This document shows, in pieces, positions 970 to 47,521 of a DNA stretch of 64,000 nt. Each line of letters opens with the position of its first letter. Position 1 is the first letter of the stretch. This DNA comes from Eledone cirrhosa (taxonomy: Eukaryota): positions 15,376,001-15,440,000 of the forward strand of contig OZ024754.1 of NCBI GenBank assembly GCA_964016885.1, given 5' to 3'. The notes under the pieces are model-generated. The model made no database searches. It was not told the origin of the DNA and saw nothing but the letters and a program-made list of their open reading frames with translations. The position numbers and the translations under genes were made by a program.

Positions 970-1490
970 TTTATAGAAGGAGCTTCTACAGGACTAGTAC
1001 TGTTTCATTCAGATGAAATCTTCAGGAAGCTGGGTGTCATATTAAGTTCTGGTATTTATACATTTAGGTAGTGGTAAGGGAGGGGTGGTGGATTGGGGTT
1101 GGGGGGGGGGGGGTATTTAGATACATAGGACCACTTCATGGCACAGGCCGTTTTTTCTTTGGGGAGTGGTCAATTAGCCAGAGTGCTTTTTGAAATAAAT
1201 AAATAAGTAAATAAATAAATAAATGAATAAATAAATAGATAAATGAATAAATAAATAAAATAAATAAAAAATAAATAAATAAAAAAAAGTAATTCAACAA
1301 ATATACAGTAGGGAAATTTTTTAGGTGGGTTGGTAATAGAAATTAAACATTTAACAAGACCGAATCATGGCACAGACTGGGGTGAGTGGTCAAGTTAACA
1401 TACAAGCCACAGGTAGAATGGAAAGAATAAAATATATTTACATACTCACAACCACATACAAAAACACTTACACACACATACCTATATATA
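970..1490 (-). mobile_element. PLE 3'-terminal (pseudo-LTR) fragment, family A, short arm
   Basis: 970-1413 is the near-perfect reverse complement of 7008-7448; contains an HHR; flanked by (TA)n. Confidence 0.8.
981..1031 (-). ncRNA. Type I hammerhead ribozyme (family A)
   Basis: Minus strand AGCTTC-CTGAAGA-stem II-GAAA-CAG(TACTAGTC)CTG-TA^-GAAGCT, with perfect stems I and III. Confidence 0.85.
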
Positions 1491-2101
1491 TATATAAAAT
1501 CAATAATAATGAGTTCAAATCTCAGGCGATCATTTACAATGAAATAGCTCGAAGAAAGACTATTCTGAGCCGTGTAATATAGGTTAACTCAAATCAATAT
1601 ATTTGATAAACAAATCCTCATATTTATGTATGTATTGTAAATGACCAAGTTAGCTAGATAGAAATATACTAATAATAATATTACAGTTTGCCTATCATGA
1701 CTTAAGATAATACATCATAAATCAACAAAAACAAATTGTATTGGCAATGGCCGTGGTGCTTGGACAAATTTCAATTTCAAAATCAAACCTGTTCCGTAGA
1801 CAGGTTTAAACCTTAAAATCCAAATATGTTTCGAATAATGAAAAAGTGGAGGGAATACCGCATTTTGATCTCCTCAGCATTTGATCTCCTCTTGCTTTAT
1901 CTTCATAGACTACCAACGCTTCATGTTTGTCTTTATTTTCATTCTTGTTTTTATTTTATTTTTATCCTGTAACCTTTATATGTAAATTGCCATGCTATAT
2001 AATTTGATGAATGTCATTCCACTGTTGATCAATATGCGCATACGTTTTATGTGTCTCTTGGGTTGAAAAGGAGGTCAAGTATGTTATAGATCAGTAAATA
2101 G

Positions 2102-2150
2102 TTGCTCCGAAGAATCCAAACCTCGGTTTGGAGGAAACAATTGTAAGCAA
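2102..2150 (+). ncRNA. Type I hammerhead ribozyme (family B variant, CCGAAGA core)
   Basis: TTGCT-CCGAAGA-aTCCAAAC(ctcg)GTTTGGAg-GAAA-CAATTG-TA^-AGCAA at the end of a PLE 3' UTR fragment (~1500-2190). Confidence 0.8.
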
Positions 2151-2505
2151 ATAAATGACTTAAACTGAACTTTGATTATTGTAATCTCTATATATATATA
2201 TATGTGTGTTTGTGTGTATGTGTGTGTATATGTATATATATATATATGTGTGTGTATATATATGTATTTTATATATATATATATATGTGTGTATATATAT
2301 ATATGTATGTGCATGTATATGTATGCACATGTATATTTGTGTGTATGTATGTATGTGTGTGAGTGTATATATATGTGTATATATATGTGTGTGTGTGTGT
2401 GTATATATATATATGTATGTGTGTGTGTGTGTGTATATATATATATATATATATATATGAAATATATGAAATATAAGAATCAAAGAACTGTTCAAAACAT
2501 TATTG

Positions 2506-2552
2506 TGCTTACAGCTGTTTCCTCCAAACCGAGGTTTGGATTCTTCGGAGCA
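2506..2552 (-). ncRNA. Type I hammerhead ribozyme (family B)
   Basis: Exact reverse complement of 5593-5639. Confidence 0.8.
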
Positions 2553-3902
2553 ATTTATTAATGCATGGACAGTTATATGACCTCCTTTTCAGCCGAGAGA
2601 CATACCAATACATATTCAAACATTGATACATATTCAAACATTGTGGGTCAACATTCATTACAGAATTTAGAGTGGCAGTACACACTTCGAGATTACATTT
2701 ATATTAATAGGTACAATCAAAAATCAAAGATATAGGTTAAAGTACAACATGAAGATAAGTGGTTATATAGTGCAAATGTTATATGTGTGGCACGCATGTG
2801 CGTCTTGTTTATATAGTGTGGCAGAGAGATATGTGAGAAATATTATAAGCATTAAAGATAGTGCAAGCATTAAAAGTGTTATAAGTATTGGAGATGCACA
2901 GCGCAGGGATGTCAAGTAATTCATGTACTTCGGCATTTTCATGGTCAAGGGAGTGTATATTTCGATTATATGCCTTTCACATAATCCACGACCATCCAGT
3001 TAGAGATCGTAGTCTGGTGTTCTTTAGTTCGATACAGGAGGTTGTTACGTTTCGAGAAACGCCATTGAATACCGGAAGTGTGTGTGTGGCTAAGGGGAGT
3101 TAATGCATGCGGGGAGGTAACTCTAGGGTTTCTATATCTAGCCATTAAAATGTGTCCCAATATAGACCCTAAATTCTATGGTGAAGTGCACCTTCCAAGA
3201 GAGACTTTTAAAGCATAAAGTGTATTAACTATAGAGTAGTTTAACTAAGTTATGCTGAAGGTGATCATATTATTATGGTGGATTAACCCATCTTAAGGTG
3301 CTACAAATGGAAATTATAGATGATGAGCGAGGATTCTAAATTAATGATCTCTGTGGTTGTAGTCTGCTCATATGACCAGGCACGGTGATTGCAGGATTGC
3401 TTCAGGACCCAATGATCTCTGGTAAGATCTGGGTCATCGCTTGCTACATTGGATGTCGAAAGATAATTGTCCCCAGGCAGGCCAAAGGTCAATCCGCAGT
3501 CCTCGCGACCCCTCTCTGACCGTCAGATCATCCATATACGTACAACCCGCACGGCAGTTGCATTGCATTCACTCACTGCGCTCAGCAGCCCGGTCCTACT
3601 GGTCAACAGCGCTACTCGATTAAATCATTTTACATCTGTCTAAGGAAGCTGTTTCCTCTGCCCAACACCATCCAACCGATCAATTCATGCTCAAATTACC
3701 CTTAGAGCGGTGTAGTGCCGTTCAAGTGGGTGGATGTTGTCACACCTGCCGTAGAGGTATAAATGGGTATTTTCCCTGCGAAGGGTTCCAGAGGGATGTC
3801 GTTGTTTGTGTTATAATGGATCAGCTAGTGTTGGGTATGTAGTATAGGGTGTGTCTCTGGTGTTTGATGCTAGATGTGGTGTTAGGTTCCAGTCCGACAT
3901 TG

Positions 3903-46460: not shown

Positions 46461-46566
46461 TATATATATATATATATATATATATATATATATATATATA
46501 TATATATATATATATAAAATAAAGTTAAATAAAAAGTCAAATGATTAAAATTTAGCTTCGTTTATT

Positions 46567-46621
46567 ACTGCTATATATATTTCAGTGACAGCCATCTTTG
46601 GCTGTGACCTCTTCAGGCAGT
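46567..46621 (-). ncRNA. Type I hammerhead ribozyme
   Basis: Reverse complement of 46826-46880. Confidence 0.88.
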
Positions 46622-46825
46622 TTGAATTAGTATGGTGTAGACAAGTACATATAGACAAGTACATATGTTGTTGAGGTGTATAATATTGTCAATACTCTGT
46701 CAATAATCATATGATTCCAGTTCCTCAGTGAAATAACAACCCAACAAGGAACTGGGCATATCAGAGTATTGACAATATTATACACCTCAACAACATATGT
46801 ACTTGTCTATACCATACTAATTCAA

Positions 46826-46880
46826 ACTGCCTGAAGAGGTCACAGCCAAAGATGGCTGTCACTGAAATATATATAGCAGT
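46826..46880 (+). ncRNA. Type I hammerhead ribozyme
   Basis: ACTGC-CTGAAGA-GGTcACAGCCA(aaga)TGGCTGTcACT-GAAA-TATATA-TA^-GCAGT. Confidence 0.88.
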
Positions 46881-47521
46881 AATAAACGAAGGTAAATTTT
46901 AATCATTTGACTTTTTATTTAACTTTATTTTACACTACTCCGGAGTAACCAAACCAACCTGCGCACTTCGTCGAGTGCTCCAGGATGCATACTGAGGTGT
47001 TGGTATACAACCAACATAAACTCAAAATCTCTCTATCTCTCTCTCTCTCTCTCTCTCTCTCTCTCTCTCTATATATATATATATATATATATATATATAT
47101 ATATATATATATATATATATATAATATTATTATATTTTTTTATATATATATTTTTTTTATGCGTGCGTGGGTATGTATGGGAATATGCGCATATTTGTAG
47201 GAGTGTATATGGGCTTGTGTGTGTGCGTGTACAAGCACCCCTGTAGGAAGGGTGTATATATATATATATATATATATATATATATATATATATATATATA
47301 TATATATAGAGAGAGAGAGAGAGAGAGAGAGAGAGAGAGAGAGAGATCACGATAAATTAACGGAGCCATAGACTCTCGCCATTGCCTGTAAATAATGTGC
47401 TCAAAGGAGAGGAAATCCTGAGCTCTTCACTGCCCTTAAACACGTTGTGACTTCTCTCTCCCACGTGTAGCTGGACAGTCATTTTAAAATTCTCTTAGTG
47501 TTGTCTGAAATGTATAGCCTT

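Follow-up and report, generated by a model that had tools for sequence, protein, structure and literature searches.

We analysed a stretch of 64,000 nucleotides (nt) from Eledone cirrhosa (assembly GCA_964016885.1, contig OZ024754.1, positions 15,376,001 to 15,440,000 of the forward strand; hereafter the window), in which inverted pairs of arms of Penelope-like elements (PLEs) are inserted into (TA)n microsatellites. The host DNA around them is (TA)n-rich and dense in inverted repeats. The initial annotation had named six junctions where the short arm of a pair ends a few nucleotides before a hairpin present in the long arm. All six are found, the short arm running into (TA)n and the long arm continuing into the hairpin. 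For family F, however, what had been taken for one fold-back (27830 and 44015) consists of two separate copies, 16 kb apart and 85% identical, with their 3' ends facing inward.

Tandem copies of family B yield a 4173-bp unit with an intact open reading frame (ORF) of 819 aa. This single ORF combines a reverse transcriptase (RT) with a C-terminal GIY-YIG endonuclease (EN) that lacks CCHH, and contains the motifs RWR, DKT and YRDD, a CxCX5C linker and, behind the GIY-YIG domain, CxxC and CxH. The Hydra clade of C-terminal EN+ PLEs is characterized by these motifs and by insertion into (TA)n (PMC8557442; here and below, comparisons with cited papers draw on parts of each source). Its N-terminal RWK/DKT pair (with DKT replacing DKG) appears in B as RWR and DKT (K to R in the first motif), while the linker, CxxC and CxH are found in four aligned C-termini whose GIY-YIG core holds one Cys only, and the insertions here lie in (TA)n as well. 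By these motifs, and as far as sequence can tell, the arms belong to the Hydra clade. The likeness includes the tandem and inverted layout and the one-sided tail, and may extend to hammerheads. Craig et al. tie (TA)n targeting to the zinc-finger linker and give tails of 30-40 bp, whereas the tails in our data measure about 70-165 nt; the sections of their paper used here describe no hairpin, template pairing or repeat addition (PMC8557442). Searching the 3.0-Gb genome (copy counts are from pattern searches) showed copies scattered along all large contigs. In metagenome contigs no relatives were confirmed with one protein query and an RT alignment.

End sites and bulged hairpins

A screen that was blind to the motif covered 80 random 10-kb pieces of the genome (800 kb). 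It gave 139 inverted pairs, in 55 of which one arm runs into (TA)n. The strict hairpin motif was found at most 25 nt from the break in 21 of these 55 asymmetric pairs (against 0.33 in shuffled tails); it was absent from the opposite strand and occurred in 0.7% of windows taken at random. The 21 pairs represent 17 distinct hairpins (one long arm is common to three rows), and the offset between break and hairpin has its mode at 5. In the remaining 34 pairs the strict motif is missing; sorted by eye, they comprise about 10 near-matches and about 14 members of other families with tails of 33-56 nt and no such hairpin, the rest being artefacts or unclear.

In the hairpin, a 2-nt UY bulge on the 3' side separates a lower stem of 4 bp (RCUC/GAGY) from an upper stem that varies, and only a bulge of this length leaves the stem continuous. 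Pair 5, which lay outside the selection, is Watson-Crick in 16 of the 17 distinct hairpins (8 C-G and 8 U-A). Shuffling the partners, in a procedure that ignores relatedness among families, gave 8.4, and 0 of 5000 shuffles reached 16. At pair 6 there are five G-U pairs.

As the initial annotation had it, the long arm keeps the tail, but this tail is not open-ended: it halts at a second site, and read-through copies, the only ones to extend further, show that the same bulged hairpin follows there once more. In family B, hairpin 2 lies 37 nt before the ATG of the element's own ORF, and in family R it is likewise present in read-through copies. Hairpin 2 of family H was predicted and then found, with 48 genome matches (0 for a control pattern).

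Breakpoints scattered along the arm would have spoken against a hairpin-directed start; instead, the ends hold a fixed distance to the hairpin downstream. Counted from the stem, the first templated base is at -6 in 17 of 24 arms for H site 1 and in 22 of 26 for H site 2, at -7 in 16 of 27 for F site 1, and at -8 in 15 of 24 for R site 1 and in 29 of 30 for B site 2 (arms chosen on the full arm); these denominators take in a few mutated read-through arms. The TATA-like overlap with the target is present in most families, though it is short and variable: 7 nt in R, 5 in B, E and F, 4 in G and 2 in H (the last read separately from the window junction). It does not extend to family A (970 and 7449), which has A-rich sequence and no UA repeat at the canonical -8..-4 and ends anywhere from about -21 to -3 (offsets converted by hand, minus 27), with stuttered additions at 3 of 13 ends.

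Complete inverted insertions carry one end of each kind in 14 of 15 cases for H and 7 of 7 for A; the 9 of 9 obtained for B are biased by selection, and the second sites of F and R are not anchored. Given one end of each kind per insertion, the tail is the stretch between the two sites. This corresponds to PAc (Poseidon; Frangieh et al. 2024), where both strands are cut and extended and two internal RT starts delimit the tail (PMC11167929). In our data the two sites are fixed as genomic ends, from which we infer RT starts. PAc starts in a stem-loop of AC-rich sequence inside the ORF (PMC11167929), whereas the sites described here lie upstream of the ATG and 5' of a repeated bulged hairpin.

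Target-like tracts and extra repeat units

Family B has 2855 genome matches. Hand classification of the first 100 listed gave 55 that read through and 45 that end. Of the latter, 44-45 stop at the tract adjoining the hairpin and at most one at a TA tract of the same length that lies 9 nt upstream of it. Considering all hairpin clusters, an alternating TA run of at least 4 occurs at -9..-3 in 15 of 44, compared to 46 of 440 upstream control windows (p=8e-5).

In the same 100 matches, extra units of 9 or 7 nt are seen at 11 of the 45 short ends and in none of the 55 read-through arms (p=7e-5). Genome-wide, 299 B copies have two units or more (control 0), and a single end can hold up to 6, with the 9- and 7-nt registers mixed. 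Because UA runs flank a 5-nt core, a primer ending in TA that copies the core would again end in TA and could realign, which accounts for both registers. The extra 9-nt unit of the B insertion in the window is missing from the long arm of the same insertion.

Site 2 of family H, with a template containing UCU, has 1502 matches. By hand, 92 of the 100 listed were scored as terminal, and CT was gained in 41 of these 92 (at least three units in 31) against 0 of the 8 read-through rows. Likewise, 13 of 26 H site-2 ends are followed by (CT)3, as against none of the 96 ends at six other sites. In all five complete H insertions with at least three extra CT, the opposite end is pure (TA)n (by eye).

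Two other origins were considered. A pre-existing compound target as the source of (CT)n was rejected, as the opposite ends are without (AG)n. Assembly errors were rejected on the basis of short reads from other samples, which show the repeats at a few loci: both end sites were seen, 118 reads in X20 carry a gain of CT, and the 9-nt unit is present in a single contig.

Some loci show more complex arrangements. At L273 and L274 the TA tracts at H site 2 are repeatedly broken by short units resembling nearby element sequence, so that a mixed reiteration of TA and unit is possible. Two B short ends face each other over one (TA)n tract at L267, and at L278 one variant extra unit is common to two inverted B short ends, which may be a junction that was copied. 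The long ends at L077 and L090 (R site 2) enter (CA)n rather than (TA)n, straight after the templated T-run.

Probable initiation on an internal template, and its alternatives

An internal UAUA template had been proposed in the initial annotation. The fixed ends, the TA-run enrichment and the re-copied units speak for such a template; the term 'TATA-like tract' was overstated, given that 2 nt suffice in H. These sequence patterns suggest that the RT initiates at an internal template paired with the primer, which then realigns, and we consider it probable that the ends are set by an RT start on a short internal UA template, with the RT held by the hairpin, primed by (TA)n and re-copying by realignment. 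According to this model, the GIY-YIG endonuclease would nick both strands of (TA)n, and each 3' end would pair over 2-7 nt with the RNA at -8..-2 from the hairpin. The RNA hairpin would hold the RT such that synthesis starts 6-8 nt 5' of the stem. Priming of one strand at site 1 and of the other at site 2 (twin priming) would give the inverted layout with its one-sided tail. Finally, early cDNA ending in TA (or GA) would slip back and be re-extended before commitment to elongation, leaving the 9- and 7-nt units of B and the (CT)n of H.

Several observations weigh against this model, concerning the hairpin, the start and the extra units. Taken singly, the hairpins show weak folding (z -0.5 to -2.4), for H1, R1 and some others the minimum free energy (MFE) structure differs from the bulged stem, and about a quarter of the structure-defined matches are expected to be false (23 in the control against 95). 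The ends at R site 2 are more dispersed. Furthermore, H site 1 is precise despite an overlap of 2 nt, so pairing may be minor there, and in vitro PAc starts at a site that is non-homologous to the cut DNA (PMC11167929). The latter two points, together with the AT-richness of the pseudo-long terminal repeats (pLTRs), would favour a hairpin that sets the start by distance alone, as in PAc, with the TA overlap being chance or a relic. In contrast to PAc, however, the starts described here have a target-like UA tract, with 2-7 nt of TA overlap, TA-run enrichment at -9..-3 and re-copied units. Moreover, family A scatters where UA is missing at that distance, and the 9- and 7-nt registers match the realignment of a TA-ended primer. 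Distance as the only determinant thus seems rather unlikely to us.

As for the extra units, no unit repeats were seen in 27 arms of F site 1, which has a similar TA-xx-TA layout, nor in the arms examined for B site 2 and R site 1. Of the 100 reiterated B arms listed, at least 4 (including L262) run on into hairpin 1, so that the extra units are not limited to ends, and three segmental duplicates (L050-L052) have (CT)n lengths that are 1-2 units apart, indicating that post-insertion slippage acts too. It might therefore be argued that the starts are as described while the units were added after insertion, through replication slippage by the unstable (TA)n or polymerase-theta-type repair. Besides the difference between segmental duplicates, this agrees with the 5-nt direct repeat and unstable neighbour of terminal arms, where read-through arms have 4 nt only. 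Nonetheless, B and H copies are 99-100% identical within their family, yet about a quarter of the ends in B and nearly half in H show gains. In addition, the junction seed in H amounts to only 1.5 CT units, F site 1 gained no units although a like direct repeat lies beside (TA)n, and (CT)3 is absent from the 96 other ends mentioned above. We regard a purely later origin of the units as unlikely.

A third alternative places the formation of the ends at the DNA level: the GIY-YIG domain would cut a cDNA or genomic intermediate at TA by a DNA hairpin, followed by microhomology joining to (TA)n. For Craig et al. the tail results 'most likely' from resolution by the EN (PMC8557442), the PAc EN favours AT-rich DNA and can nick its own pLTR (PMC11167929), and TA at the junctions is likewise predicted. 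Later in vitro work, however, places the tail ends at RT starts (PMC11167929). Cutting, moreover, does not provide for the addition of as many as 6 templated units or of over 18 CT, and the G-U pairs in the stem suit RNA better, so we judge this explanation very improbable. The three alternatives are not mutually exclusive.

The hairpin had been regarded in the initial annotation as a boundary of the telomerase type. In telomerase, the element that bounds the template is located 5' of it, where it halts synthesis. The hairpin described here sits 3' of the template, on the primer side, and is never copied; it would consequently be a positioning element rather than a boundary. Arms continue for hundreds to thousands of bases past the start, the template is part of the element's own mRNA instead of a separate non-coding RNA, and copies are spread along contigs and not confined to chromosome ends. 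What would be shared with telomerase is a short internal template with an alignment and a templating part, and primer realignment giving tandem repeats, with the differences that the primer comes from an endonuclease cut and that reiteration is occasional. PLE RTs form the sister group of telomerase RT (PMC8557442). A further parallel is found in the long interspersed nuclear elements (LINEs) UnaL2 and ZfL2, which have a protein-binding bulged RNA stem-loop and telomerase-like template slippage at initiation; the UnaL2 stem-loop lies upstream of the 3'-terminal repeat and is copied (PMC1636434), whereas here the template is internal, the hairpin downstream and uncopied, and the module present twice.

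Whether (TA)n itself is extended, as had also been suggested, was addressed by comparing filled with empty sites. The flanks of 32 complete insertions gave two collinear matches, both at the ends of other elements and with variable TA, and hence not one empty site that was informative. TA runs at ends have medians of 14.5-27.5 against a background of 14, a difference that would fit addition as well as target choice. In two single cases (L261 and L111; the read-through partner of L111 carries a short tract), a terminal arm has a long TA run lying between its templated segments. These runs could reflect TA slippage at initiation, and later slippage could equally have made them. A slip on a pure UA template would add (TA)n, making the product indistinguishable from the target.

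The choice of start, the one-sided tail and microsatellite targeting are named as open questions for PLEs (PMC8557442). A literature search, with subscription papers and key supplementary figures mostly outside its scope, gave no earlier description; the parts of Arkhipova 2013 used here describe tails and self-priming, and the words 'hairpin' and 'slippage' do not occur in them (PMC3846280). The new part consists of the repeat-addition footprints, which make template pairing directly testable and define the least that would be needed as substrate, namely some 60 nt of RNA, a primer of (TA)n and the intact 819-aa ORF; starts 6-8 nt ahead of the stem and ladders of 9 nt or of GA are predicted. 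If our model is true, primers realign on an internal template in a PLE, and the elements are a source, not just users, of simple repeats. Much more tentatively, Hydra PLE RTs might be repeat-adding enzymes that make microsatellite DNA at each insertion from an internal template positioned by the hairpin, as (CT)n or 9-mers and, on UA, as (TA)n. They would thereby create the targets of their later insertions, be the force behind this genome's very large (TA)n load and preserve, within a transposon, telomerase's step of alignment and translocation; we doubt this more than we believe it.

Feature coordinates and related elements

Table 1. Positions of elements, end sites and hairpins in the window (position 1 is its first letter); L numbers denote loci outside it.
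Feature	Position	Strand	Remark
Family A short end	969..975	-	No UA repeat at canonical -8..-4
Family A hairpin 1	7460..7478	+
Family B short end, extra unit	2454..2462	-	One extra 9-nt template unit between element and (TA)n tract 2434-2457
Family B 3' pLTR	2463..2893	-	ORF-bearing short arm, ending at site 1
PLE ORF, Hydra clade by motifs	3903..5165	-	5'-truncated; RT thumb, CxCX5C linker, GIY-YIG
Family B inverted long arm	5310..5846	+	Ends at site 2, 5 nt before position of hairpin 2 in read-through copies
Family B hammerhead-like core	5597..5627	+	Fourth base non-canonical; by eye
Family B putative site-1 template tract	5678..5682	+	5-nt alternating AU, -8..-4 from stem
Family B hairpin 1	5686..5719	+	4-bp lower stem, UU bulge, upper stem
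Family E short end	7985..7992	-	Runs into (TA)n
Family E hairpin 1	8590..8625	+	Compensatory U-A in lower stem
Family R hairpin 1	22923..22965	-	Non-coding tandem unit; bulged stem not MFE
Family R hairpin 2	23491-23508	-	Another read-through copy
Family R hairpin 2	23636..23653	+	Read-through copy
Family R short end	24192..24200	+	Runs into (TA)n
Family F short end	27824..27830	+	Copy separate from 44015 arm
Family F hairpin 1	43992..44012	-	Substitutions in 3' strand of this copy
Family G short end	36186..36192	-
Family G hairpin 1	36495..36554	+
Family H short end	46513..46517	-	2-nt UA overlap only
Family H hairpin 1	46937..46976	+	Alternative fold of lower energy
Family H site-2 end with added (CT)n	47028..47069	+	About 20 units, between element and (TA)n
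Other (TA)n-targeting families	16770-17975; L189:1535, L194:2172, L242:1866, L243:7424, L247:1427

At about 45-90 nt upstream, the first end site is preceded by hammerhead-like cores (Table 1). The core pattern was matched in families A, F, G and H, and an Rfam scan contained no hammerhead among the best 150 of 169 matches; microRNA-like matches to microsatellites stayed below gathering scores. The core of the very young family B has a C at the position of a conserved U, so cleavage may not be required for the spread of B.

Family R consists of head-to-tail units, each about 600-700 bp long, that contain a hammerhead-like core as well as both hairpins and in which no ORF was seen (window 23491-23653; L065, L070, L078 and L087). 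Its non-coding tandem unit, hammerhead-like core and PLE-type ends resemble metazoan non-LTR retrozymes (bioRxiv 10.64898/2026.07.22.740005). R differs in retaining both hairpins and end sites, a cis signal that is not named in the parts of that preprint used here, and may be a retrozyme-like partner of the PLEs.

In the other (TA)n-targeting families (tails of 33-56 nt, without such a hairpin) the short arms likewise stop on an alternating TA stretch of 4-7 nt. The copy in the window has a C-terminal GIY-YIG domain with two internal cysteines (Pfam 1.5e-6) and likely represents another PLE clade, so internal TA pairing may be wider than Hydra.

Three further kinds of repeat are found in the window. 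Fragments at 33571-34477 and 38379-39394, with endonuclease and RT pieces in the list of ORFs, resemble what we take to be an APE-type LINE. A minisatellite of about 27 copies of 29 bp (95% matched) spans 41574-42354. Finally, an interspersed repeat of about 190 bp is present at 13180-13388 and in about ten other places, with many copies, some of them tandem or inverted.

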